From positions 8,626 through 32,625 of the forward strand of contig NZ_MRUL01000027.1 of NCBI RefSeq assembly GCF_002006995.1: 24,000 nt of DNA, given 5' to 3'. Numbering within the stretch: position 1 is the first letter of the stretch; every line of letters starts with the position of its first letter. Both the position numbers and the translations under genes were made by a program. Shown here in pieces: positions 130 through 15,514 of the stretch. Source of the DNA: Izhakiella australiensis. Lineage in GTDB: Bacteria; Pseudomonadota; Gammaproteobacteria; Enterobacterales; Enterobacteriaceae. The notes beneath the pieces were generated by a model, which was not told where the DNA came from, did no database searches, and was given only the letters and a program-made list of their open reading frames with translations.

Positions 130-1158
130 TTATCGGTTTAAAGGGATACGTCCTGAAGAAATTTCGGATCTCCAGTGTTGGAGTAAGTCGCGAAACATAT
201 CAGATGCTTTAATTTCAGGTTTCCAGTCAATAAAATTCTTTATTTTAGTATTATCGAACATTTGATAATCTGCATCAATTGGTCGCAATCGATCCGTGTC
301 AGTTACAATCTCAATATCATTTCGCGAACTAAAACTTAGCAAAAGCTCTATAACTTCGGTCAGTTTAAATGCTTCTTCACCGGCAATATTGAATGCCTCG
401 CCATTAGGAACCCCCCCAGCCTCACTTTTGCAGGCTAGTAAATAATAAGCGCGTACTGCATCACGTGCATCCTGAAAGGTTCGGACACTTGCAAGATTTC
501 CAACTTTTAATTTCGGCTCCTGATGTCCTGCTTCAATCAAAGCAATTTGTTTCGCAACGGTGCTTTCGAAGAAGACATCACTTCTACGTGGACCTGTATG
601 TGTCCCCATTCGGGTAACAAAGGTACGAATGCCGTAAGCTTCTCCATAAAATCGGCCAAGATAATCCGTCCCAATTTTACTAATACTATAAGGACTTGCA
701 CCATGAAACTGAGTATCTTCGTTAAGTGCTTCCCCTACTTTAGCTCTCCCATATACTTCACTTGAAGAACATACATGTACAACAGGATTATAGCCATGTT
801 GCTGCTTAAGTTTTCTAACGCATTCAAGTAAATTCGCAGTGCCAATGATATTCGTCTGAAGGGTTTCTATGGGAATATCGAAAGAAGTCCGCGGGAATGA
901 TTGCGCAGCTAAGTGAAAAATAAATTTCGGTCTCGTAGACTCTATTAAGTTATATATAGAGACATAATCATTAAGGTCTGCATATTTAATAAAAACGCGA
1001 TCTTTTCTATTGATCCTATCTGTCAGATGGTAGATGTTATCCATTGGCTCCTGCCAGCGCATCATGCCAATAACAGCATCATCAGTTTTATCAATAATAT
1101 AATCAGCTAATTGTGATCCAACCTGACCTGTAAATCCCGTTATTAATACATTATTCAT
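130..1158 (-). CDS. GDP-sugar 4,6-dehydratase (extended SDR, Gmd family); DmhA-like GDP-D-glycero-D-manno-heptose 4,6-dehydratase candidate
   Basis: ORF 130..1167. N-terminal Rossmann motif LITGFTGQVGS and catalytic SSSEVYG...YSISK pattern. The likely true start is the ATG at 1156-1158 (MNNVLITG), preceded by AAGGAG. The ORF-track start at 1167 is a GTG overlapping the upstream stop. Confidence 0.8.
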   Translation of the reverse strand: MNNVLITGFTGQVGSQLADYIIDKTDDAVIGMMRWQEPMDNIYHLTDRINRKDRVFIKYADLNDYVSIYNLIESTRPKFIFHLAAQSFPRTSFDIPIETLQTNIIGTANLLECVRKLKQQHGYNPVVHVCSSSEVYGRAKVGEALNEDTQFHGASPYSISKIGTDYLGRFYGEAYGIRTFVTRMGTHTGPRRSDVFFESTVAKQIALIEAGHQEPKLKVGNLASVRTFQDARDAVRAYYLLACKSEAGGVPNGEAFNIAGEEAFKLTEVIELLLSFSSRNDIEIVTDTDRLRPIDADYQMFDNTKIKNFIDWKPEIKASDMFRDLLQHWRSEISSGRIPLNR

Positions 1159-1163
1159 AAAAA

Positions 1164-1997
1164 TCACTCCTTACATACTGCCAAATATGACTCAAGAGAT
1201 CTATTAATAATAGATTCCAAGAAAATGCTCTTAGTATGGATTTTTTTAGGACGTCCCTGCCAAAATGACTCAGGGGCATCAATAAATTTGAAACTTAAAC
1301 TATGATATTTTTCTTTGACAATCGCCGTAACGATATCTTGTCGGCTAACCAGACTATTCCCTGAAAAATTCACTACTCTGGTATTGATTTTTTCCCAATT
1401 AGTAATAATATTTCTAATACCGCTTAAAACATCGTTTATCATGATCACACTTCTTTCAAAGCCGTCGAAGACAGCAAGCGTTTTACCGTTATTATAATAA
1501 TCATCAATCATTAAAGTAAACTTGTCACCTTTCCCTAAAACATATGAAAATCTAGTTACAAAGAAATTATTATTATCATGAAAATAATCTTCAACCTCAG
1601 ATTTCATTTGACCATACTTTCCAAATGGTCTCTTTTCATCTCGCTCATCACAGATATTTTTTGCATTACCAAAAACAGCATCACTCGATGAGAAAATAAC
1701 TTTAACTTTTTTCTCCAGAAGCATTGATGTTAATAGGATTGTTTTCCTTACATTAATATCAAATGCATACTCATAATTTTTTTCGCATAAATCAGGTGCA
1801 GAAATAGCCGAAAGAAAAACTAACGTATCGTTGGCATTTATTTTATCTACAAGTTCATCAAAATTATTACTTTCAAGATCAAATATTACATCAGAATTTT
1901 TTCTGCCAAGCGTAACAACCTCGAAATCATCACGAAGAAAAGCTGCCAGATGAGAGCCTATATACCCTGTAGCCCCCAATATAAATACTCTTTTCAT
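1164..1997 (-). CDS. NAD(P)-dependent SDR reductase/epimerase; DmhB-like GDP-4-keto-6-deoxy-heptose reductase candidate
   Basis: 277 aa ORF with the N-terminal motif ILGATGYIGSHL. It lies directly upstream of, and is coupled to, the Gmd-like dehydratase gene. Low GC like the rest of the cluster. Confidence 0.7.
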   Translation of the reverse strand: MKRVFILGATGYIGSHLAAFLRDDFEVVTLGRKNSDVIFDLESNNFDELVDKINANDTLVFLSAISAPDLCEKNYEYAFDINVRKTILLTSMLLEKKVKVIFSSSDAVFGNAKNICDERDEKRPFGKYGQMKSEVEDYFHDNNNFFVTRFSYVLGKGDKFTLMIDDYYNNGKTLAVFDGFERSVIMINDVLSGIRNIITNWEKINTRVVNFSGNSLVSRQDIVTAIVKEKYHSLSFKFIDAPESFWQGRPKKIHTKSIFLESIINRSLESYLAVCKE

Positions 1998-2062
1998 ATA
2001 AGAACCTATTTTCAGAATAAAATATATAATTGAAATCGAATTTATTTAGCTGCCTAATTAAT

Positions 2063-3037
2063 TCAATAACCAATTGTTATTTTTATACTTTCTTTGTTGT
2101 CATTCTTTCTTTGCAAAAAGATATGATAGCTATCGTCATGAAACATTCTAATCCAAAAGCCATTATCTTTAACTATCACCTTGTCACTATGACCAGATTT
2201 CGTCTCGAAATATACATCTGATATATCTTCTTCCATAATAAAATTAAGGTCAGAATAGTTAGGCGATGGATTCACACTATCAACCTTAAATGCAACGACA
2301 TTATTATTGACGTATTCATGAAGATGCAGGCCGTAGCTTGTTAGTTTCATTATCAAATTATACTTGTTATAAACGCTTTCACTAGGACCTTCAAATAATA
2401 CGACGCCATTTTCAATGCAGACTAAACGGTCTGAAAGCTGTTTTAATTGGGCTTCATCATGTGAGACGATGACAACTGTAGTGTCTGACTTAATTTTCTC
2501 TCTTATACTTTTCTTTGCTTTCTCCGCAAATGTCACATCTCCAACCCCAAGCACCTCATCAATGAGAAGAACTTCCGGTGTAGTATACATTGCAATAGAA
2601 AAACCCAGACGAGCTAACATACCAGAAGAGTAGTTCTTAATTGGCTTTTCAAAAAAATCATTTAATTCAGAATATTTTTTAATGCTTTCGATAATGGTTT
2701 TTATATAGGAAAGACGATGTCCCAACACCATCCCACTGAATATTGTATTCTGACGACCAGATAAATTTGGATCAAATCCAGCCTGAAGTGCCATAAGTGA
2801 AATGCTATTTGAATGTATTTTAATATCGCCAGAGTCCGGCTTAATTATCCCAGCCAGCACTCTCAGCAATGTCGATTTGCCAGCACCATTTCTTCCAATA
2901 ATTCCCAAAGTTTCGCCTTTATATAGATCGAAAGAAATATTTTTAAGTGCAGTATATTCATCATAGGTAAATAATGTCTTTTTTTCCCTGTAAGTAACTT
3001 CGACATTTTTTAATTCAATTATTTTTTCATTACTCAT
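2063..3037 (-). CDS. wzt: Polysaccharide ABC exporter ATP-binding protein Wzt, with a roughly 85 aa C-terminal extension
   Basis: Walker A GRNGAGKST, ABC signature YSSGMLARLGF, Walker B LLIDEVL. 4-nt overlap with the upstream wzm (3034-3037). Confidence 0.9.
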   Translation of the reverse strand: MSNEKIIELKNVEVTYREKKTLFTYDEYTALKNISFDLYKGETLGIIGRNGAGKSTLLRVLAGIIKPDSGDIKIHSNSISLMALQAGFDPNLSGRQNTIFSGMVLGHRLSYIKTIIESIKKYSELNDFFEKPIKNYSSGMLARLGFSIAMYTTPEVLLIDEVLGVGDVTFAEKAKKSIREKIKSDTTVVIVSHDEAQLKQLSDRLVCIENGVVLFEGPSESVYNKYNLIMKLTSYGLHLHEYVNNNVVAFKVDSVNPSPNYSDLNFIMEEDISDVYFETKSGHSDKVIVKDNGFWIRMFHDDSYHIFLQRKNDNKESIKITIGY

Positions 3038-3807
3038 TTCTGCACCACTCTTGGAAAAATAAATTCTAATTTTTTGAATGCATATAATGAGATAGAAATT
3101 AACGACAGGGAGAGAATAATAACATATCCGAGTAATTTAATATCAGGCGCATTGTGATACATCAGTACATCTCTATATGAACTTAATATCACAGCCATCG
3201 GATTAATAAAGAATACTTTAGTCTCCATAGATGGGATAACTTTGTAGTTAAAAAATATCCCGGAGCAGAACATCATTATTTGCAGACTAGTTTCAATTAC
3301 AAAAGAAAAATCACGAACAAATGGCACAATTAACGACACAATCAAAGAAAACGCAATAATTAGTAATAACTGAATCAATATGACTGGAATAATCCATAAC
3401 AGTCCAAAATTATAGTCATAGCCATATAGCAATAAAAAAATAAGTAAAAGCATGAACACTAGCAATTGCTTTATAGCATCTTGTAATACGAAAGTCATAG
3501 GGAAGAAAATTTTCGGGATATGCACTTGATTCATCAAATACTTACCTTGAATAATACTGCCTTGTGCATGACTTACGCTGCGCCCAAACCATATCCATGG
3601 GATTAATCCTGTAAGCAAGAAGGGTACATAATCAGGCCCCCCTTGTTTTAATAAAAACGAAAAAACCAAATAATATATAGCCATCTGAAGGATTGGTTCA
3701 ATAATCCACCATGCGTAGCTTAAATAATTTATTGATGCTTCTGATTTAAGGTTTAACTTTGCTTTTACCCAAACCAGCTCAAAAGTTCTAAAATAAAATT
3801 TGCTCAT
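3034..3807 (-). CDS. wzm: Polysaccharide ABC exporter permease (ABC-2 type) Wzm
   Basis: 257 aa, highly hydrophobic with about 6 predicted TM segments. Paired with wzt, which is the typical Wzm/Wzt arrangement. Confidence 0.85.
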   Translation of the reverse strand: MSKFYFRTFELVWVKAKLNLKSEASINYLSYAWWIIEPILQMAIYYLVFSFLLKQGGPDYVPFLLTGLIPWIWFGRSVSHAQGSIIQGKYLMNQVHIPKIFFPMTFVLQDAIKQLLVFMLLLIFLLLYGYDYNFGLLWIIPVILIQLLLIIAFSLIVSLIVPFVRDFSFVIETSLQIMMFCSGIFFNYKVIPSMETKVFFINPMAVILSSYRDVLMYHNAPDIKLLGYVIILSLSLISISLYAFKKLEFIFPRVVQK

Positions 3808-3808
3808 G

Positions 3809-4663
3809 CTATCTTTTTCTCAAAAGTGCTCTAATATAAATTATTAAGTTGAAATTCTTGAGGCATTGCAAAAAGTGATAAACATAAAGGGAAATAGAAT
3901 ATACGAAATAAGTATCATTTGTTTCCCTACTAAATTTAATACTGTTTCGCAAAATATGCGACAACCGAAAAACGTCATATTTTCTGATGCCACTCTCCAT
4001 ATCATGCGTTACACACAGATTTCCCAAGTAAATACCTGAAGAGGATTTTATTTTTGAAAGTCTATATGTAAATGTCAAATCATCATAATATATAAAATAA
4101 TCAACAGGCACTAAAAGTGATTTTTTGAATTCCCTTTCGTTGACAATGGTTAGCCCAATAAAACTTGCAGCTTCAACTATTTCAGTTTTGTCACCAAACT
4201 TTCTTCTATTTTTTAAATAGTTATACATTTTACCCAGAGAATTAGGAATTATAGTCATGGGGCGATTCATTGTAAGCCTTAAACCAGCCCTGTTCACCAC
4301 TTTAGGTGTTATAAAGGAATATTTATCCCCGTAGCGGCTAACTTCATTATTGAGGGCATCAAGAAAGTGCTGGTCAAAATATGCATCATCATCCAGGAAT
4401 GTTGTCACGAACGATTCATATTTATCTTCAAGATAACTCAACCCTGCTTTGAAGCCATATGATGCTCCCATGTTTTTATTCAGTTGAATCAACCTAATAC
4501 GGGCATCAAAGTGAGACATATTTAACAAAATATTTCTTGTTGCCTGCTCCGAGTTATTATCCACTATAACTAACTCATCGAGCGTTGTAGCAAGAAGGCG
4601 GTTAATAGATTCCTGAAGTTTTGTAGTCCTATTATAGGACACCATTACTACTGTATATATCAT
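3809..4663 (-). CDS. Family 2 glycosyltransferase
   Basis: 284 aa. N-terminal VVMVSYNR...VIVDNNS and a DDD motif (FLDDDAYF), as expected for a GT-A/GT2 fold. Located between the mutase gene and wzm. Confidence 0.8.
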   Translation of the reverse strand: MIYTVVMVSYNRTTKLQESINRLLATTLDELVIVDNNSEQATRNILLNMSHFDARIRLIQLNKNMGASYGFKAGLSYLEDKYESFVTTFLDDDAYFDQHFLDALNNEVSRYGDKYSFITPKVVNRAGLRLTMNRPMTIIPNSLGKMYNYLKNRRKFGDKTEIVEAASFIGLTIVNEREFKKSLLVPVDYFIYYDDLTFTYRLSKIKSSSGIYLGNLCVTHDMESGIRKYDVFRLSHILRNSIKFSRETNDTYFVYSISLYVYHFLQCLKNFNLIIYIRALLRKR

Positions 4664-4665
4664 TT

Positions 4666-6744
<2,079 letters not shown>

Positions 6745-6748
<4 letters not shown>

Positions 6749-7614
6749 TCACCCTTTGCAAAAGCGATAATGTATCTTCCGTACTCATTTTTTTCCATCG
6801 GTAGAGCGTTTTTAAGTACCTGCTCTTTAGTCAGCCAGCCATTTCGAAGTGCAATTTCCTCAAGACAAGACACTTTCAATCCCTGTACATGCTGAATGGT
6901 TTGAACAAAAGATGATGCTTCATTTAAACTTTCATGGGTCCCTGTATCCAGCCAGGCAAAACCACGCCCTAGTAGCTCCACATTCAGAGACCCATCATTC
7001 AGATACATTTCATTAAGCTCTGTTATCTCAAGTTCGCCGCGTATAGATGGTTTAACTTTCTTTGCAAATTCGACCACACGGTTGTCATAAAAATATAGTC
7101 CTGTAACTGCATAATTTGACTTTGGCTTTTTTGGTTTTTCTTCGATTGAGACAACTCGCATTTTATCGTCAAATTCCACAACACCGAAGCGCTCAGGATC
7201 TTTTACCTGATAACCAAAAATTGTAGCTCCATGCGTTCTTTCAACAGCATTTTGCAGAATTTTTCTGAACGATTGTCCATAGAATATATTATCGCCCAGA
7301 ACTAAACATACGTTATCGTCAGCAATAAAGTCTTCGCCAATCAAAAAGGCCTGAGCCAAGCCATCAGGGCTTGGCTGCACTGCATAGGTCAAATGTATGC
7401 CGAAATCACTGCCATCACCCAATAAGCGTTTAAAACTTTCGTTATCTTCTTGTGTTGTTATGATAAGGATATCCTGAATTCCTGCCAACATTAATGTTGA
7501 TAGCGGATAATAAATCATTGGTTTATCATAAATAGGCAACAGCTGCTTTGAGACACCACGTGTTATTGGATAAAGACGGGTGCCAGACCCGCCTGCTAAA
7601 ATTATACCTTTCAT
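6745..7614 (-). CDS. rmlA: Glucose-1-phosphate thymidylyltransferase
   Basis: [18 protein letters not shown]...[25 protein letters not shown] is near-canonical RmlA/RfbA sequence. 289 aa. Confidence 0.95.
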
Positions 7615-7623
7615 TTTTCCAAC

Positions 7624-8712
7624 TTATTTTATCAGACCCAGACGTTCGCGCGCATATGAACCATCGATCACACGTTGCCACCATTCTCTATTATTTATAT
7701 ACCAGCTGACCGTCTTTTTTATTCCCGACTCAAATGTTTCCTGTGGGAGCCAGCCTAATTCATTTTTTATTTTACTGGCATCAATAGCATAACGCCGGTC
7801 ATGACCGGGTCGATCATCGACATAAGTGATTAATTGTGCGAAGCTATTTATATTATTCGGCTTTTCTTCAATAATTTCATCAAGAATTAAACATATCGTT
7901 TTAACAACATCAATATTCTTACGCTCATTATGGCCACCTATATTATAAGTTTCACCTACCGAACTCTCAGTAACGACTTTATATAAAGCTTTGGCATGAT
8001 CATCAACAAACAACCAGTCGCGAATTTGCTCGCCGTTGCCATATACCGGTAGGGGCTTTCCTTCCAATGCATTGAGAATAATCAATGGGATTAATTTCTC
8101 AGGGAAATGATAAGGACCATAATTATTTGAGCAATTAGTAATAACGGTTGGTAGACCATAGGTACGCCGCCATGCCCGTACTAAATGGTCGCTGGAGGCC
8201 TTTGAAGACGAGTAGGGGCTGCTAGGAGCATATGCTGTATTTTCATGAAATAGAGGGAGCTCAGTATCTGCCGGGACCTCATCAGGATGAGGGAGATCCC
8301 CATAGACTTCATCAGTAGAAATATGGTGAAAGCGAAATGCTTGCTTGTGATTTTCATCAAGCGCTGACCAATATTTACGGGAGGTTTCAAGCAGGACATA
8401 AGTCCCGATAATATTGGTCTCAATGAAAGAGGCAGAGCCAGTGATTGAACGGTCTACGTGGCTTTCTGCTGCTAAATGCATGATGGCATCAGGGCGATGC
8501 TCGGCAAAAATGCGCGTCATCTCATTGGCATCACAAATATCTGCCTGCACAAATGCATAACGCTCGCTGTGTTCGATACTCTTTAGCGACTCAAGATTGC
8601 CTGCATAGGTTAATTTATCAACATTAACCACGAAATCTTTTGTATTATTAATAATATAGCGAACGACCGCAGACCCAATAAAACCTGCACCGCCTGTGAC
8701 TAGAATTTTCAC
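7624..8712 (-). CDS. rmlB: dTDP-glucose 4,6-dehydratase
   Basis: [21 protein letters not shown]..., [11 protein letters not shown] and [11 protein letters not shown] motifs are canonical RmlB/RfbB. GTG start at 8710-8712. First gene after the JUMPstart element. Confidence 0.95.
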
Positions 8713-8804
8713 GTCAACTTTTCCGTTTATACTTTCTAAATGACAAGTGGGACGGCAGAGCTATGGTTAACTGCGCCCCTTCGAGCAATTCAATAACTTT
8801 TATG

Positions 8805-8843
8805 CACGCTACCGCCCCTGACTCAACAGCTGCCAGTGCACTG
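8805..8843 (-). promoter_or_regulatory. JUMPstart element containing the ops site (RfaH recruitment) in the leader of the polysaccharide operon
   Basis: The minus strand reads CAGTGCACTGGCAGCTGTTGAGTCAGGGGCGGTAGCGTG. The ops core GGCGGTAGC lies at 8808-8816, about 95 nt upstream of the rmlB start. Confidence 0.85.
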
Positions 8844-10335
8844 CGTACAATCAAGTGTATATAACAGCATCAATACACCAAACCTAGTATCGCTTTCTCC
8901 CAAGTTACAATTGTCTTACCAAATGCCGCCGGAAACAAGAAAAAACCTAAAGGATCTCCGTTTTGTGACGCCCATAATAATTTATTGTTTTAATTGACTT
9001 TTTTACTGAGAAAAGTATCATGAAATCGATGTTGTGATTTAACATATCCAGATCACCTGGTTATGTAATAATCTTTCGATTAACATTTAATCTTATTACC
9101 CTGCCAGATACAACTTACCTGACGATTTTAAACTTCGCTCGTACTGAGGCAGAGTTCACCACTTTAACCAAGGAAATTGTAGCAGATAATCGTCTATGTA
9201 AGACCACTAACATCAGCATAGTAACTTATTGTTTTTAAATGAATTAAATCACCAAGATAACTTTACAGCCTGGCAACCCAAACACTTCCCACCATCCTTC
9301 TGAATCGGTTATAAAAATAGCTTTTAGTAAAATTAGTGTTAATTCACAATGTCCAATAATTTCCACCAAATCATCAGAAATGAATAGTTCTCTTCACTCA
9401 TTATTCAGGGACTTTGTTAGGCTGAAAAACAGAATGCTCCTAAATATTTACGTTACAACATAACATCTTGACAACATCATCATCCGCAACGAATTGGGAT
9501 TGATGTTGTCAGTTATAGAATGAGATGTCGCCACAGGTGAATAGGCAACATTAAAAATTAAAGTAGTGCAGTTACGCCTTATCATGTGGTTTAGTAATGT
9601 ACATATTACTAATGTACATTACTGCCTAAATAAATAATAGAAACCACCACACAAAACAATATTAAAAACCCGATTAATCAAGATGTAATCCATTCAAATA
9701 AACTAACAATTATCCATTACATAAAAAATAAAACAGGTTAAAAATTGCAACGAAGAATAAACTGAAATCACTTCTAATCATCACATTAACTTCCAACGAA
9801 ATATTTACACTGCAGATAACCATCACACAGGACACGACAGCAATCATAATATCATTGAAAATTATGACGTAATAAAAAAAGCACAAACAAGCTAAAAAAA
9901 CCCATTAAAAACATTATTGATACTTCCAAACACCCAACGCGGCACACCCTTAATAAAATAGTTAAAAATACGTACAACCAAAACTATTGACATAATTAAA
10001 CAACATCATTTCACCAATGACCGACCGATGAAATTTCGTATTTCCACCGACTTTAAACACAGCAATCTATTATTTACTGTGACAATCCTAAATCAGTTGA
10101 AACACCATATTAATATGAATAAAAAACCGTTATAATTTAATATTAAAAATGGATAGAATGTTCATTTCCTACCAAGAAGAAACTATCACTATCACATTGC
10201 CTCCAACTTATATTCACTATTGTTTCAGAAAATAAAGATGATATAGTCAATCAAACCCATATCATCATTTCCCGAACAGTTCAAATAACACTTACTTATT
10301 GTCGGGGTTAATCAGACGAGCATAAGGACTTTTTA

Positions 10336-11679
10336 ATGGCAGGTTTTACCTCTCTGGCGTCGTTTCTGGACACCATTCAACAGCGTGATCCACATCAAAT
10401 TGAATTTCAGCAGGCGGTACGTGAAGTCTTTACCTCACTGTGGCCATTTCTGGAACAAAATCCTCGCTATCAGCAGCAGGGCCTGCTGGAACGTCTGGTT
10501 GAACCCGAGCGCGCCATCCAGTTCCGCGTTGCCTGGACTGACGACCGCAGTCAGGTACAGGTAAACCGCGCCTGGCGCGTGCAGTTTAATTCTGCGATTG
10601 GCCCCTTCAAGGGCGGAATGCGCTTCCACCCTTCGGTCAATCTCTCAATCCTGAAGTTCCTCGGCTTTGAACAGACCTTCAAAAATGCGCTGACGACGCT
10701 GCCGATGGGCGGTGCTAAAGGCGGTTCGGACTTTAATCCAAAAGGCAAAAGCGATGCGGAGGTGATGCGCTTCTGCCAGGCGCTGATGACGGAACTATAC
10801 CGCCATCTGGGTCCGGACACTGACGTGCCTGCTGGCGATATCGGCGTCGGCGGTCGCGAAGTCGGCTTTATGGCCGGGATGATGAAGAAACTCTCCAATA
10901 ACACCGCCTGCGTGTTTACCGGTAAAGGCCTGTCGTTTGGCGGCAGCCTAATCCGTCCGGAAGCGACCGGCTATGGCCTGGTGTACTTTACCAATGCGAT
11001 GTTAAAACGCCACGGCCTCGGTTTTGAAGGTAGCCGCGTCGTGGTTTCCGGTGCGGGCAACGTGGCGCAATATGCTATTGAGAAAGCAATGGAGCTTGGT
11101 GCGCGCGTGATCACGGCCTCCGATTCCGCAGGCACGGTGGTGGATGAAGCGGGCTTTACGCCGGAAAAACTGGCTCAGCTGGCGGAAATCAAGAACCAGC
11201 GTTACGGCACCGTGGAAGAGTATGCGCGCGAGCGCCAGCTGACCTATTTGCCCGGACAACAGCCGTGGAGCGTGCCCGCGGATATTGCCCTGCCGTGCGC
11301 AACGCAAAACGAACTGGACCTGCCGGCAGCACAGCTGCTGATCGCCAACGGCGTGAAAGCGGTTGCGGAGGGAGCGAATATGCCGACAACTATTCAGGCG
11401 ACGGACGCGTTCCTTGAGGCTGGGGTACTGTTTGCGCCGGGCAAAGCGGCCAACGCCGGCGGCGTGGCAACCTCAGGCCTGGAAATGGCGCAGAATGCCG
11501 CGCGCCTGGGCTGGAAATCAGAGAAAGTGGACAGTCGATTGCAGCATATCATGCTGGATATTCACCACGCCTGTGTTGAGCACGGTGGAGAAGGCAAACA
11601 GACCCACTATGTCCACGGTGCGAACATTGCTGGCTTTGTTAAGGTCGCCGATGCGATGCTGGCGCAAGGCGTTCTCTAA
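10336..11679 (+). CDS. gdhA: NADP-specific glutamate dehydrogenase
   Basis: 447 aa, collinear with E. coli GdhA as I recall it (LLERLVEPER, KGGMRFHPSVNLSILKFLGFEQTFKNALTTLPMGG, GVATSGLEMAQNAARLGW, ANIAGFVKVADAMLAQGV). Confidence 0.97.
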   Translation: MAGFTSLASFLDTIQQRDPHQIEFQQAVREVFTSLWPFLEQNPRYQQQGLLERLVEPERAIQFRVAWTDDRSQVQVNRAWRVQFNSAIGPFKGGMRFHPSVNLSILKFLGFEQTFKNALTTLPMGGAKGGSDFNPKGKSDAEVMRFCQALMTELYRHLGPDTDVPAGDIGVGGREVGFMAGMMKKLSNNTACVFTGKGLSFGGSLIRPEATGYGLVYFTNAMLKRHGLGFEGSRVVVSGAGNVAQYAIEKAMELGARVITASDSAGTVVDEAGFTPEKLAQLAEIKNQRYGTVEEYARERQLTYLPGQQPWSVPADIALPCATQNELDLPAAQLLIANGVKAVAEGANMPTTIQATDAFLEAGVLFAPGKAANAGGVATSGLEMAQNAARLGWKSEKVDSRLQHIMLDIHHACVEHGGEGKQTHYVHGANIAGFVKVADAMLAQGVL

Positions 11680-11754: not shown

Positions 11755-11876
11755 CAAAGTAAGCCGCCGGTAACGTATCACCAGCGGCGGGTTGCCGGGG
11801 TGCAAAGTAAGCCGCCGGTAACGTATCATCGGCGGCTGTCTGGCGGGGTGCAAAGGTCCGGGGCGGCTTAGCCGTG
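11755..11876. repeat. 48-bp tandem repeat (2 full copies plus one degenerate partial), each with a GC-rich hairpin, between the convergent gdhA and MFS genes
   Basis: Copies start at 11755, 11803 and 11851. The first 26 nt, CAAAGTAAGCCGCCGGTAACGTATCA, are identical in copies 1 and 2. Hairpin example: AGCCGCCG (11810-11817) pairs with CGGCGGCT (11830-11837). Confidence 0.8.
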
Positions 11877-11884
11877 TAGAACTT

Positions 11885-13186
11885 TCAGTATTCTGCGGCG
11901 GTTTTTTCGTCGGGCCTGTGCCCTTTCAGGCCACGATGTCCGTCGCTTAACAACAAGGCGCCCAGCATTGCCAGCAGCGCCAGTACGACGGCATAGCCCG
12001 CAATAGGCCACCAGGCGCCGCCAGCGCTGCTTTGTAGTGCTACGGCGATAAACGGCAGAGTGCCTCCGGCAACGGCGCCGGCCAGCTCGCGGCTACTGGC
12101 CATGCCGGTATAGCGAATATGCGGGGGGAACGCCTCCGAAAGCATGGCGGCCTGTGCGCCCAGCATGGCGTCATTACACAGGCAGTAAATAAGAAACATC
12201 CCCAGCCAGATCATCCCCTGCTCGCCGGTATTTAATAGCATGAAGAACGGCGCTATCAGCAGCGCCAGTCCGCAGGCGCCAGCGATAAAGATCTTTCTGG
12301 CGCCATATCTATCGCTCAACGCGCCGGCGCCGGGAACAGTGACAAACTTGATGAAGTTACAGATCATCACCCCCATTACGCCAACGCTTTTATCAACGCC
12401 GACCTGCGCGACCAGATAAGTCAGGGCAAAAGCCGAAGGTAGATAAGAGGTGACGTTCGGGCCAATACTTAGCAAAAAAGCGCCTAAAAAATTGCGCGGT
12501 TTACGTTGAATAACCTCCATTAGCGGCATGCGTTTTTCCGACCGCGTGGCCTTAGCCGCGTTAAACTCAGGGCTTTCAGCGACGCCAATACGGATCCAGA
12601 TACCGACGATGCCAATAGCAAAAGAGGCAATAAATGGAACCCGCCATCCCCAGCTCATCATGTCCTCTTTCGGCAATTGTTGAACGGCGATAATCGCCAG
12701 GCTGGCGATAATTGAGCCCAGCGCGTTGCCGGCGCCAGGGATCGACGCGAACAGCCCACGGTTTTTATGCCCGGCATGCTCGGCCGAGAGGAGTACTGCT
12801 CCTGAATATTCACCACCGGCAGCGAATCCCTGGCCCAGACGGCAGATTACCAGCAGGATCGGCGCCCACAGCCCGATGGTATGCCAGGCCGGAATAAGAC
12901 CGATCAGCGTGGTAGAGGCCGCCATCAATATCAGGGTGAAAAACAGCATTCCACGGCGCCCCAGCTTATCGCCAAGCGAGCCAACGATCAGGCCGCCGAA
13001 GGGCCGGGCAAAGAAGCCAACACCAAAAGTGGCGAAAGAAGCCAGAATGCCATATGCGCCGCTCATCTGCGGGAAAAATACCTGGGGAAAAATGAGCGCG
13101 CTGGCCATGCCGTACAGGGCGAAATCATACCATTCAAGGGCCGTGCCCACGGTTGAGGCCAGGGCGGAACGTTTTGCATCAGACAT
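11885..13186 (-). CDS. MFS transporter, metabolite:H+ symporter (MHS) family
   Basis: 433 aa, about 12 TM segments. The N-terminal LEWYDFALYG motif and GxLGDKxGRR loop are typical of MHS members (KgtP/ShiA/ProP-like). Last gene of a tightly coupled 3-gene operon. Confidence 0.85.
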   Translation of the reverse strand: MSDAKRSALASTVGTALEWYDFALYGMASALIFPQVFFPQMSGAYGILASFATFGVGFFARPFGGLIVGSLGDKLGRRGMLFFTLILMAASTTLIGLIPAWHTIGLWAPILLVICRLGQGFAAGGEYSGAVLLSAEHAGHKNRGLFASIPGAGNALGSIIASLAIIAVQQLPKEDMMSWGWRVPFIASFAIGIVGIWIRIGVAESPEFNAAKATRSEKRMPLMEVIQRKPRNFLGAFLLSIGPNVTSYLPSAFALTYLVAQVGVDKSVGVMGVMICNFIKFVTVPGAGALSDRYGARKIFIAGACGLALLIAPFFMLLNTGEQGMIWLGMFLIYCLCNDAMLGAQAAMLSEAFPPHIRYTGMASSRELAGAVAGGTLPFIAVALQSSAGGAWWPIAGYAVVLALLAMLGALLLSDGHRGLKGHRPDEKTAAEY

Positions 13187-13189
13187 AGC

Positions 13190-13525
13190 CTACCCCTTCA
13201 GTGCCAGATGTAGCGTGATCATCGCGGTTTGCGCCGCCCCTTCCAGCGTCAGCTCAAGGCGCAGCCAGCCGCCAAAATGAGACTGCGCGATGGCGGTCAA
13301 TCCCGGCCCCTGTACCGATACAACGTCTCCCGGCGCATCCAGCCAGTGTATACCGTCGGGTGATATTTTTGGCCTGACCAATATGCGAGTAAAATCAGCC
13401 TGCTCAGAATGTACCGTCAGAAAAAATAGCGCTTCATCCGCCCAGCCGCATTCATAGGGTTCACTGGAAAAAATGCCGTCAATGGGCTGACGCATTTCAA
13501 TAACTGAAGTATAAAACTCTTTCAT
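13190..13525 (-). CDS. Hypothetical protein, 111 aa, no family recognised
   Basis: ORF with core-like GC. A 2-nt gap from the upstream gene stop and a 3-nt gap to the MFS start imply co-translation. No signal peptide and no motif I can name. Confidence 0.7.
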   Translation of the reverse strand: MKEFYTSVIEMRQPIDGIFSSEPYECGWADEALFFLTVHSEQADFTRILVRPKISPDGIHWLDAPGDVVSVQGPGLTAIAQSHFGGWLRLELTLEGAAQTAMITLHLALKG

Positions 13526-13527
13526 TT

Positions 13528-14469
13528 TTATATGCCTTTATCTTCAGGGTTAATATAACCATCGGTAGAAATAACCACGGAATCGAGGTAAAGAAAAACC
13601 CGACGGTTAGCGCCGGTTTCAATAAAGAAAACGGGATTTAATAATCCGGTAATGCCTTTATATTCCTGTGCCATGGTGGGCTGCTTGCCACGCAGATCCA
13701 TGACCTTATCCATACATTGCAACGCCACATATTCCCGGCGTGAAACGTCAATCGTCAGGCGCATATACATCCAGTTAATTTTGTCATCGGCCTCGTTAGC
13801 GACCAGCTCCTGATGTCCATCATCTATCCACTGAAAACCATCACCTCCGCCATCCGCCTGGCGTTGTCCATACCACTGACCGTCAACGCCAACCTTATGC
13901 CAGCCGTCATGGCCATAGTTCCAGCGCCGGTGATCGACCCCGTCGCTAACGCGAAAATATTGCCAGCGCTTAATCGATTCTCCGTCGGCGCTGTTAACGT
14001 AGCGCACGCCCGGCATCCAGCGATTTCCCTGACTTTGCAGGTCGATAAAGCAGCCAAAGGCCCGCACGTCCCGATCGCCGATACCGGCAACGGATGGCTC
14101 CGGCGTATAGGTGAACCAGGCTTCAAGCTGTAATAAATGCAGGCTACCGGGCACTGCCATGCGTTTAATCGCCAGCCCCATGCTTCCCGCCGCCGGCGGC
14201 TGATCAATGGGCGCGCTGTTAGCGCGGGTGGCGAGTTTAAGGCAGTGTCCACCGCTCATCGCTCCATGGGTGCCCATCATCGGAAAGGTGGCGGAAGAGA
14301 GCATCGTCGGCCCCCAATGGATCAGGTCAATTTCCTGCGAATGTGGCGCAAAATCAGATTTAACAAAATTAGGTCTTAAATCCAGCCAGCCATTATGGCC
14401 GCGATGAAACTCATCAAACGTTATAATTTTTTTTAGCGGATTAAACTTTGCCAGTCTGTAATCATCCAT
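13528..14469 (-). CDS. Hypothetical protein, 313 aa, apparently beta-rich, no family recognised
   Basis: Long ORF with core-like GC. First gene of the operon. Rich in W/G/D, no signal peptide and no catalytic motif I can name. Confidence 0.75.
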   Translation of the reverse strand: MDDYRLAKFNPLKKIITFDEFHRGHNGWLDLRPNFVKSDFAPHSQEIDLIHWGPTMLSSATFPMMGTHGAMSGGHCLKLATRANSAPIDQPPAAGSMGLAIKRMAVPGSLHLLQLEAWFTYTPEPSVAGIGDRDVRAFGCFIDLQSQGNRWMPGVRYVNSADGESIKRWQYFRVSDGVDHRRWNYGHDGWHKVGVDGQWYGQRQADGGGDGFQWIDDGHQELVANEADDKINWMYMRLTIDVSRREYVALQCMDKVMDLRGKQPTMAQEYKGITGLLNPVFFIETGANRRVFLYLDSVVISTDGYINPEDKGI

Positions 14470-14698
14470 AGCGTATTCTCATATTTAAGGGACAGCGATA
14501 CCGTCCGCTGTGCAGATGGGGTAGCGGGTTATTAAAGTAATTAAATTAGCGCGTAGCCTGAACGCTCACGCCGGTTAAGAGCGCGTTAAATAGCGTAATT
14601 AATTCCTTACTTACCGGATCGGAATAAAAATAAGCATAGTGGCGTTTTACTTGCAGGGTAAAGTCATCTGAAGCGGTTATGTGAGGAGTTGCACAAAA

Positions 14699-14742
14699 TT
14701 GGTCCAGCCAATAATAATGAATCACTATTTTGGCCTGACCAA
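14699..14742. promoter_or_regulatory. Two candidate GntR-family (UxuR/ExuR-type) operator boxes, TTGG-N5-CCAA, upstream of the unknown operon
   Basis: TTGGTCCAGCCAA (14699-14711) and TTGGCCTGACCAA (14730-14742), with centres 31 bp apart. They lie in the 289-bp region between the GntR stop and the start of the 313-aa gene. Confidence 0.55.
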
Positions 14743-14758: not shown

Positions 14759-15514
14759 TCAGCCGTCAGCGTCGAGCGGAGAGGAGTTAAACAAATAGCC
14801 GTCGAAATCCGCAGCTGCGGTATCTGCCAGCTTAAAAAGTTTATTTTTTACGTTTTCAAGGTGTTGCCACATCGCCCTCTTCGCGCCCTTCGCATCCCGG
14901 CGTTGAATCGCCTGCAAGATGCGCAAGCGATCCTCGAACCATTGCCAGCGAGCGCTGAAATCACTGGTATCCTGATGCTGGTTTTGCCACATCCCCGAGC
15001 GGCTGCGCAGCTTCCAGCTCTCCTGAACAATCGCCACCAGCGCGGCGTTTTGCGTCGCCGATGCCACGAGGTAGTGAAAATGCTCATCGGTGTCATCCGC
15101 GATATAGCCTGAGGAAAGCTGCTCCCGCTCCAGTTCGATGGCATTGCGCAGCTCGGTGATATCACTTTTTGTTGCCTGCAATGCGGCAAAGGAGGCGATC
15201 TCGCTTTCCAGCAGTTGCCTTGCCTGCAGCAGTTCAAATACCCCGCAGCTAACGCTATCAGATAAGGGAGACTCACCTGATTCGCGCGGCGCAGAGGCAA
15301 GTACATACACCCCGGAGCCTTTCCGAATTTCAATGCATCGCTCCACTTCCAGCAGAATAAGCGCCTCTCTGACGACGCTACGGCTGACGTTGAACTGACT
15401 GGCGATATCGCGCTCCGCAGGTAACTTATCGCCTGGCTGGTATGTCCCACGGTGAATGGCATCACGCAGCTGTTGACCAATCTCCTGATAAAGTCTCATG
15501 CTTTTCATATCCAC
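14759..15514 (-). CDS. GntR-family (FadR subfamily) transcriptional regulator, UxuR/ExuR-like
   Basis: N-terminal winged HTH LPAERDIASQFNVSRSVVREALILLEVERCIEIRKGSGVYV resembles UxuR/ExuR. C-terminal FCD-type helical domain. The start could instead be the ATG at 15508 (MKSMRLYQ). Confidence 0.85.
   Translation of the reverse strand: MDMKSMRLYQEIGQQLRDAIHRGTYQPGDKLPAERDIASQFNVSRSVVREALILLEVERCIEIRKGSGVYVLASAPRESGESPLSDSVSCGVFELLQARQLLESEIASFAALQATKSDITELRNAIELEREQLSSGYIADDTDEHFHYLVASATQNAALVAIVQESWKLRSRSGMWQNQHQDTSDFSARWQWFEDRLRILQAIQRRDAKGAKRAMWQHLENVKNKLFKLADTAAADFDGYLFNSSPLDADG

Follow-up and report, generated by a model that had tools for sequence, protein, structure and literature searches.

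A predicted carbohydrate-catabolic cassette of Izhakiella australiensis joins a conserved DUF6772/DUF6385 protein pair to a putative acid symporter

Introduction

The hexuronate and glucuronide genes of Escherichia coli are arranged in units such as uidR-uidABC, and exuT and uxaCA under the control of ExuR and UxuR. Agrobacterium has a glycoside 3-dehydrogenase together with a 3-keto-disaccharide hydrolase (PF06439/DUF1080). Here we describe a locus that invites comparison with both systems. It lies in a stretch of 24,000 nucleotides (nt) from the enterobacterium Izhakiella australiensis (contig NZ_MRUL01000027.1, positions 8,626 to 32,625), which as a whole we call the window. The locus consists of a gene for a GntR-type regulator followed by genes for a protein of 313 amino acids (aa) with the Pfam domain DUF6772, a DUF6385-like protein of 111 aa, and a transporter of 433 aa of the metabolite:H+ symporter (MHS) type.

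On balance, and with some reserve, we favor the view that this is a GntR-controlled cassette in which the MHS transporter would import an anionic carbohydrate, and in which a heteromer of the two beta-sandwich proteins would convert it to a core sugar-acid metabolite.

Results

A cassette of four constrained genes

The three genes downstream of the regulator follow one another so closely that stop and start codons are separated by 2 nt between the 313- and 111-aa genes (TAA-AA-ATG) and by 3 nt between the 111- and 433-aa genes (TAG-GCT-ATG). These gaps are exact in the sequence, and they bear out an earlier note on this DNA, which had described the three genes as a tightly coupled unit. Purine-rich stretches stand immediately 5' of both gene starts, and translational coupling across the gaps seems plausible. 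The regulator gene is on the same (minus) strand, 289 nt from the DUF6772 gene. Beyond it, on the opposite strand, are genes for the IIB, EIIC-GAT and EIIA components of a phosphotransferase system; the earlier note had seen meaningful context in this Gat-type system, which in fact lies outside the conserved unit.

The ratios of nonsynonymous to synonymous substitution (dN/dS) against the nearest orthologous locus, L016, are 0.03 for the 313-aa gene, 0.11 for the 111-aa gene, 0.04 for the transporter and 0.07 for the regulator, at dS values of 0.41-0.56. Because these ratios are so low, we conclude that all four open reading frames (ORFs) are real, constrained protein-coding genes.

DUF6772 and DUF6385 genes are strictly paired

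The 313-aa protein passes the Pfam profile DUF6772 (PF20562) with 323.6 bits (E 1.3e-96; gathering score 27 bits), and the match is full length, running over residues 2-303 and profile positions 7-283 of 284. The 111-aa protein scores 21.3 bits (E 2.9e-4) with Pfam DUF6385 (PF19912), under the gathering score of 26.8. Its homologues, at 40%-48% identity and full coverage, do carry PF19912, and we therefore regard it as a divergent DUF6385 member. Both proteins are thus catalogued, contrary to the previous description of them as unrecognisable. The related claim that neither belongs to a characterised family held up, since profile searches of Pfam, NCBIfam and the PDB put neither protein in one: NCBIfam has no model for either, and the profile searches found no sequence relatives of them in the PDB. 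Reading of the N termini revealed no signal peptide or hydrophobic segment in either protein. Homology of the two proteins to each other was considered and rejected (hhalign probability 2%).

A DUF6772 profile scan, with one genome per species, found 79 loci in seven phyla: 54 in Actinomycetota, 12 in Pseudomonadota, five each in Chloroflexota and Planctomycetota, and one each in Acidobacteriota, Bacteroidota and Deinococcota. With the window this makes 80 loci, which are phylogenetically related; the counts given here describe linkage and are not independent statistics. Pairing was counted with hidden Markov models that were built from clustered neighbors and searched against all six-frame ORFs. 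Every one of the 97 DUF6772 genes in the 80 loci has a DUF6385 gene downstream on the same strand. The two are at most 150 nt apart in 86 of the 97, and are separated by exactly one gene in the other 11. Neither this obligate pairing nor the transporter linkage described below is mentioned in the papers and tool annotations that were searched, a search that did not cover the text of the Pfam entries.

The DUF6772 family itself is compact. A search of 1.8 billion representatives returned 265 matches, many below full length, and among the 150 matches listed none exceeds 441 aa and none has an evident extra domain. Apparent domain fusions in high-GC loci were rejected, the long upstream frames being other-frame overlap with the upstream gene. 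Identity is about 50% across phyla, and an alignment of 48 sequences contains 51 invariant columns, many of them D, E, R, K, N, H or Y; at the level of sequence, they include H68, Y247, Y270, Q145, Q170 and several arginines. In the jelly-roll polysaccharide lyases (PL7/PL14/PL36), the catalytic constellation of the cleft is made up of Arg, Gln, His and Tyr. Few compact relatives, this level of identity and the 51 invariant columns suggest a single conserved function. Taken together with the strict pairing, the compactness of the family argues for one conserved job that DUF6772 and DUF6385 do jointly.

A second, very divergent DUF6772/DUF6385 pair (tree branch length 1.6) is present in thirteen loci (L023, L028, L029, L039, L042, L047, L057, L065, L068, L070, L074, L081 and L083), from Micrococcales, Nakamurella, Tessaracoccus and unclassified metagenome-assembled genomes (MAGs) of Actinomycetota. 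It is the first DUF6772 copy of the locus, near positions 1900-3400, and it adjoins a LacI gene and faces an Opp-type ATP-binding cassette (ABC) operon whose last genes are the main pair.

An orthologous transporter follows the pair in three phyla

The best NCBIfam model for the transporter is the MHS model TIGR00883 (TC 2.A.1.6), with 378.5 bits over the full length and a cutoff of 443.45; the second is the shikimate transporter ShiA (NF007414), with 338.4 bits, which does not reach the equivalog cutoff of 538. Since TIGR00883 is the best model but its cutoff is missed, we regard the transporter as MHS-like yet outside the curated set. The MHS assignment of the earlier note is therefore upheld at the level of the best model.

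Co-conservation of the pair with its transporter was a test set by the earlier note, and it is borne out. In 14 loci from Pseudomonadota, Actinomycetota and Acidobacteriota, the gene directly 3' of the pair encodes an MHS transporter of one orthologous group. The window's transporter is 81%-96% identical to the enterobacterial copies and 46%-54% identical to those of Mycobacterium, Microbacterium, Herbiconiux, Promicromonospora, Thermomonas, Pseudoxanthomonas, Sphingomonas and an acidobacterium, whereas the unlinked MHS paralogues that these loci also contain are only 33% identical to it. Additional to these 14 loci, genome G008 has the same four-gene order intact. The transporter-linked pairs fall into three separate clades of the DUF6772 tree.

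Both proteins are predicted beta-sandwiches

The AlphaFold2 model of the DUF6772 protein (mean predicted local distance difference test score, pLDDT, 89.7; predicted TM-score 0.91) is all-beta, as the earlier note had proposed. Foldseek matched it in the PDB to L-type lectins (Emp46p/Emp47p and legume lectins), calreticulin and alginate lyases of polysaccharide lyase (PL) families 14 and 36. The best 50 of the 152 matches at E<=0.001 are all jelly-roll lectins, lyases or lectin-like domains, and the lectins and lyases align at TM-scores of 0.3-0.5, with 8%-13% identity and E values of about 1e-6 to 1e-5. The model would place DUF6772 in the concanavalin-A-like lectin/glucanase fold, at the level of fold only. 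For the 111-aa protein, the AlphaFold2 model (pLDDT 94.5) has eight strands in a single jelly roll and matches generic jelly rolls, namely the carbohydrate-binding modules CBM32/36, protease P-domains and XepA/YomS. This agrees with the description of DUF6385 as a single-jelly-roll domain (PMC13700489).

Such folds also bring to mind proteins that bind sugars and do nothing else to them. Both proteins might be non-catalytic cytoplasmic carbohydrate binders, serving as a lectin-like sensor, a sink, or a modulator of the regulator or the transporter. Their best structural matches are indeed lectins and carbohydrate-binding modules and not enzymes, DUF6385 occurs elsewhere as the head domain of structural proteins, and no catalytic motif was recognised. 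We nevertheless judge this explanation improbable: the pair is independent of the class of the transporter and of the regulator beside it, it is embedded mid-operon among enzymes, as in Arthrobacter, and dense invariant polar and charged residues, such as those of the 51 columns, are seen more typically in active sites than in lectins.

A flavoprotein partner in some loci

In the 11 interleaved pairs, the intervening gene always encodes a flavin adenine dinucleotide (FAD)-dependent oxidoreductase of family PF12831, and a PF12831 gene lies within 10 kb of the pair in 35 of the 80 loci. From this one could argue that the pair handles the substrate within a three-component flavoenzyme, which would first oxidise its substrate and then cleave it; in the window's genome, either an unlinked PF12831 protein would take part or the substrate would arrive already oxidised. 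That genome does have a single full-length PF12831 gene, 31%-38% identical to the linked ones (the family spread is 30%-92%). The PF12831 partner is itself uncharacterised: its similarity to PDB entries is limited to the FAD-binding motif, and a literature search on PF12831 found nothing relevant. What makes us regard the flavoenzyme as unlikely is that the remaining 45 loci, to which all the enterobacterial ones belong, lack any PF12831 gene up to 10 kb from the pair, and that the window genome's own PF12831 gene sits in a CoA-transferase/enoyl-CoA hydratase operon that looks like part of another pathway and has a GntR regulator and a transporter of the major facilitator superfamily (MFS) of its own. 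For that reason it was rejected as the partner of the cassette. DUF6772 was likewise rejected as a 3-keto-disaccharide hydrolase: comparison with a nine-sequence DUF1080/PF06439 profile gave an hhalign probability of 0.08%, and there was no PF06439 match at E<=1. This too speaks against oxidation followed by cleavage of the Agrobacterium kind.

The operon with the unlinked PF12831 gene (L095, G000:C12:602000-621500, positions 5829-11602) comprises MFS, CoA-transferase, enoyl-CoA hydratase and flavoprotein genes. A divergent GntR/FCD regulator gene stands beside it, next to genes for an IlvD/Edd-type dehydratase and an RraA-like aldolase, and the whole looks like another uncharacterised organic-acid pathway.

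The regulator and its candidate operators

The regulator has the domain architecture GntR (E 4.5e-24) plus FCD (E 9.7e-20). Its NCBIfam scores are 254.6 bits for UxuR (cutoff 442) and 227.7 bits for ExuR (cutoff 396), so that these are the nearest models and both equivalog cutoffs are missed; the label UxuR/ExuR-like in the earlier note is right in the first sense and goes no further. In each of the enterobacterial loci L016, L017, L018, L022 and L025, an orthologue (66%-93% identity) stands at the equivalent place. Outside Enterobacterales, the regulator is only 21%-32% identical or its place is taken by a LacI regulator. Co-conservation with the pair is therefore true of the regulator within Enterobacterales and not beyond.

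Palindromes of the form TTGG-N5-CCAA flank the regulator gene (Table 1). The 24-kb window contains three exact copies, all of them within the cassette, where an estimate from the 8 fixed bases gives about 0.4-0.7 expected. The exact copies thus exceed chance, whereas those with one mismatch do not: the whole window has 13 of them, and shuffling gives a mean of 11.9. In L016, L018, L022 and L025, boxes are again present at the two intergenic sites that they occupy in the window; upstream of the regulator, L016 (at 8920) and L025 (at 6995) have exact boxes equivalent to the window's one-mismatch copies. The exact box inside the 111-aa coding sequence is common to L016, which is 98% identical, and is missing from the more distant enterobacterial loci. 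This arrangement suggests that the GntR protein may use the boxes both for autoregulation and for control of the three-gene unit. The candidate promoter of that unit is largely kept in a seven-locus alignment and was not called by a consensus scan; the leader of about 165 nt, its length taken from the predicted start, has no match to an Rfam element or riboswitch.

A UxuR/ExuR-like regulator raises the possibility that the pair is a non-orthologous replacement for the uronate isomerase UxaC, which would feed glucuronate or galacturonate to UxuB, UxuA and KdgK. Genome content appeared at first sight to agree: the window's genome, rated 100% complete, encodes UxuA (C44:66158-67318) and no detectable UxaC. 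In addition, UxuA is joined with the pair and an MHS transporter in an operon of Mycobacterium (in the order GntR, UxuA, DUF6772, DUF6385, MHS; the UxuA, a mannonate dehydratase, scores 441 bits), and UxuB-like dehydrogenases and PfkB kinases are frequent neighbors of the pair. However, 28 of 40 other carrier genomes have UxaC, among them all five other enterobacterial carriers searched, and so does G008. Because the two distributions are not complementary, we reject the replacement, which now seems very improbable indeed. Among same-family relatives of the window's genome, UxaC was found in 13 of 24.

Gene neighborhoods of the pair

Neighboring families were counted by Pfam annotation of recurrent clusters, as the number of loci out of 80. 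Regulators of the LacI type are found in 57 loci and of the GntR type in 16. Transport is represented by Opp-type binding proteins (SBP5; 36), sugar-type binding proteins (SBP1; 19) and MHS transporters (16), and dehydrogenases by zinc-dependent alcohol dehydrogenases (22) and the mannitol-dehydrogenase family (21). There are also His-phosphatases (14), PfkB kinases (13), exo/endo-phosphatases (12), BNR sialidase-like proteins (10), beta-helix proteins (10) and sulfatases (9). The PfkB neighbor kinase is ribokinase-like.

Single loci give these numbers more meaning. In Arthrobacter psychrolactophilus, a LacI gene accompanies an operon for an ABC importer, PF12831, DUF6772, DUF6385, a mannitol-dehydrogenase-family protein and a PfkB kinase; no classical or otherwise known glycosidase was found in that operon. 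In Larkinella and planctomycete loci, the neighbors of the pair include a BNR sialidase-like gene and genes for a NanM-SSF fusion and a NanA-like lyase. It is embedded among sulfatases in Aggregatilinea, stands with a beta-helix protein and an alginate-lyase-family gene in Microlunatus, and is found with a glycoside hydrolase of family 38 (GH38) in a locus of Phycisphaerae. What these neighborhoods have in common, judging by gene content, is apparently the cytoplasmic processing of imported carbohydrate, often acidic or substituted.

Phosphoesterase genes of several kinds (GDPD, His-phosphatase, exo/endo-phosphatase, PhoD and PAP2) recur beside the pair in Microbacterium murale (L004/L068) and Thermomonas (L011/L069). 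These families are mutually unrelated, and they hint that some versions of the pair may act on sugar or polyol phosphodiesters.

Mutarotase genes typically sit beside transporter genes. The pair, too, adjoins transporter genes of any class (MHS, Opp-type ABC, sugar ABC and SSF), which fits an accessory converter of ring forms or isomers: a mutarotase, anomerase or ring-opening protein, comparable to GalM, NanM, YhcH or KdgF, that would break no bond of the substrate and would instead speed the slow spontaneous interconversion of an imported sugar acid for pathway enzymes encoded elsewhere. A generic step of this sort would suit the very different sugar-acid contexts, including the sialic-acid-type loci with NanM-SSF and a NanA-like lyase, and the very high sequence conservation would suit a single chemistry. 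Still, operons of the Arthrobacter type import by an oligopeptide/oligosaccharide-type ABC system and offer no other candidate for cleavage, two subunits with 424 aa in total are large for such a role, and neither Pfam nor Foldseek found sequence similarity or close structural similarity to a known mutarotase or cupin family. We consider a converter rather unlikely.

Origin and distribution of the cassette

Among the window's genome and 41 relatives, the DUF6772 gene is confined to the former and one other genus. It is present in one of 401 genomes sampled evenly across Enterobacterales, so that the cassette occurs overall in 2 of about 440, and E. coli genomes gave no match to it. The enterobacterial DUF6772 copies form one clade (Shimodaira-Hasegawa approximate likelihood-ratio support, SH-aLRT, 99), whose members come from a MAG labelled Buttiauxella (98% identical), Superficieibacter, Sodalis sp. 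RH21 and Sodalis MAGs. Its sister, with support of 87 and 69% identity, is from an actinobacterial Frankiales MAG with the locus order GntR/FCD, pair, MFS. Because the distribution is patchy and the sister sequence is from Frankiales, we conclude that the cassette was acquired horizontally and is not core enterobacterial DNA. Its G+C fraction is 0.537, compared with 0.532 for the surrounding 14 kb, which implies that the transfer was not recent or that the donor was of similar composition. The earlier note had concluded from composition that this is not recent foreign DNA; the composition is as it said, while the distribution and the Frankiales sister point to foreign origin.

On the chromosome of Sodalis glossinidius (L008/L009, 6020-10045), the cassette looks decayed and adjoins an IS110-family transposase: DUF6772 measures only 268-286 aa, the 111-aa gene has stayed intact, and the transporter survives only as fragments. 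One Sodalis MAG has a truncated transporter gene and a split regulator gene.

Other features of the window

Between the convergent transporter and gdhA genes lies a tandem repeat (Table 1). A GC-rich hairpin was called by a scan in copy 1, at 11763-11788, and inspection by eye showed the homologous palindrome in copy 2; the repeat is likely a duplicated terminator or an element like the repetitive extragenic palindromic (REP) sequences. Elsewhere in the window, a JUMPstart RNA (Rfam RF01707, 55.1 bits) at 8805-8843 on the minus strand stands upstream of a nine-gene minus-strand cluster of low GC content (31%-40%) at 130-8712, the first gene of which is dTDP-glucose 4,6-dehydratase-like.

Table 1. 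Positions in the window of the cassette genes, candidate control sites and adjoining repeat
Feature	Position	Strand	Basis or location
Regulator gene, GntR + FCD domains, UxuR/ExuR-like	14759..15514	-	Pfam and NCBIfam profiles
DUF6772 gene, 313 aa, predicted concanavalin-A-like beta jelly roll, predicted cytoplasmic	13528..14469	-	Pfam, AlphaFold2, Foldseek
DUF6385-like gene, 111 aa, predicted 8-strand jelly-roll beta-sandwich	13190..13525	-	Pfam, homologues, AlphaFold2, Foldseek
MHS-type MFS transporter gene, 433 aa	11885..13186	-	Pfam and NCBIfam profiles
Two exact TTGG-N5-CCAA palindromes, 31 bp apart, candidate operators	14699-14711, 14730-14742		Regulator stop to DUF6772 start
Two operator-like boxes, one mismatch each from TTGG-N5-CCAA	CTGGCCTGACCAA 15529-15541; TCGGTCAGGCCAA 15553-15565		Just upstream of regulator start
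Third exact box TTGGCCTGACCAA, identical to the box at 14730	13369-13381		Inside the 111-aa coding sequence
Candidate sigma-70 promoter of the three-gene unit, TTTACC-18 nt-TATGCT, weak	14633..14662	-	Inferred from reading the sequence only
Tandem 48-nt repeat, 2 copies, 88% identical	11755..11850		Between convergent transporter and gdhA genes

Discussion

We propose that the cassette works as follows. The GntR/FCD regulator would bind the TTGG-N5-CCAA boxes before its own gene and before the DUF6772 gene, and would thereby control one transcript for DUF6772, DUF6385 and the MHS acid:H+ symporter; the mode of control would probably be repression, and the cassette would be inducible. The symporter would bring in an anionic carbohydrate; this might be a sugar acid of the uronic or keto type, or else a small glycoside or ester derived from such an acid. 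In the cytoplasm, DUF6772 and DUF6385 would work jointly and most likely form a heteromeric enzyme, one in which no cofactor-binding domain is recognisable; they would cleave or rearrange the compound for use by core sugar-acid metabolism. The physical complex, the catalysis and the acidic sugar substrate are presumed from several lines of evidence; for the substrate, these are the family of the transporter, the UxuR/ExuR-like regulator and its boxes, the UxuA-coupled operon of Mycobacterium, and the lyase-like neighbors in fold space.

A bolder version of this proposal, which we put forward tentatively as a possibility, is that DUF6772 and DUF6385 together are the first member of a new family of carbohydrate-active enzymes with two subunits. 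It would be a lyase or hydrolase without a recognisable cofactor-binding domain, and its substrates would be uronic acids, keto sugar acids or small glycosides of these. Many Actinomycetota might combine it with the PF12831 flavoprotein, itself uncharacterised, in an oxidise-then-cleave route that would bypass classical glycoside hydrolases.

Several observations weigh against our interpretation. The transporter scores under the cutoff of the MHS subfamily. The structural matches of DUF6772 are at fold level only, with TM-scores of 0.3-0.5, and a catalytic motif characteristic of a known lyase or hydrolase family was not recognised. A full-text literature search for DUF6772, DUF6385, PF20562 and PF19912 found no functional study. 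Among the neighbors, the mannitol-dehydrogenase-family protein fits D-arabinitol dehydrogenase and fructuronate reductase equally, below the cutoff of both, and UxuA, which we considered and rejected as a regular partner of the pair, is linked in only one of the 80 loci. The neighborhoods are heterogeneous, and sialic-acid-type genes occur in them as well as phosphoesterases, sulfatases and polyol dehydrogenases. They do not point to any one substrate, and a generic accessory role would fit equally well.

A strictly paired and strongly conserved unit in the sugar-breakdown loci of at least seven phyla marks a gap in the map of carbohydrate catabolism. The window holds its simplest version, with only a regulator, the pair and a transporter, in a cassette of 3.6 kb that could be transferred to E. 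coli K-12 and is therefore directly testable; Superficieibacter electus strain BP-1 and Sodalis sp. RH21 are cultivable relatives that also have it. Assignment of the reaction would allow hundreds of loci to be annotated in soil Actinomycetota, Chloroflexota and Planctomycetota, and would probably also inform on the widespread PF12831 flavoproteins.

How does the cassette compare with described systems? Like the E. coli hexuronate units, it combines a local or UxuR-type regulator with a cytoplasmic enzyme, here the putative one, and an H+-coupled symporter of an acidic sugar or glycoside; its regulator is nearest to UxuR and ExuR, and its boxes have the TTGG...CCAA architecture. It differs in that the presumed enzyme is unrelated to the GH2 beta-glucuronidase or to UxaC, the transporter is MHS-type and not GPH or ACS, and the regulator is under both cutoffs. 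The Agrobacterium system, in which a flavoprotein oxidase works with a concanavalin-A-like protein (cytoplasmic or periplasmic) that splits the glycoside once it is oxidised, is a possible model for the PF12831-interleaved loci. There is, however, no homology between DUF6772 and DUF1080 (hhalign probability 0.08%), the window's cassette has no flavoprotein, and the Agrobacterium system lacks a second small subunit. PL14 vAL-1, PL36 Aly36B and the L-type lectins share the concanavalin-A-like fold, and uronate substrates such as those of the lyases would fit an acid transporter, but the resemblance (TM-scores 0.3-0.5, identity 8%-13%) comes with no common sequence motif or sequence-level match. 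Within Pfam, the 313-aa protein is a full member of DUF6772, and the 111-aa protein is homologous to DUF6385 but below threshold.

What the window adds is the minimal enterobacterial form, the linkage to an orthologous MHS transporter in three phyla, the conserved operator-like boxes, the negative outcome of the UxaC test and the evidence for horizontal origin. Overall, the locus appears to be of a known kind, a catabolic cassette of regulator, enzyme and transporter, and its novelty is that the place of the enzyme would be taken by an uncharacterised two-protein unit.

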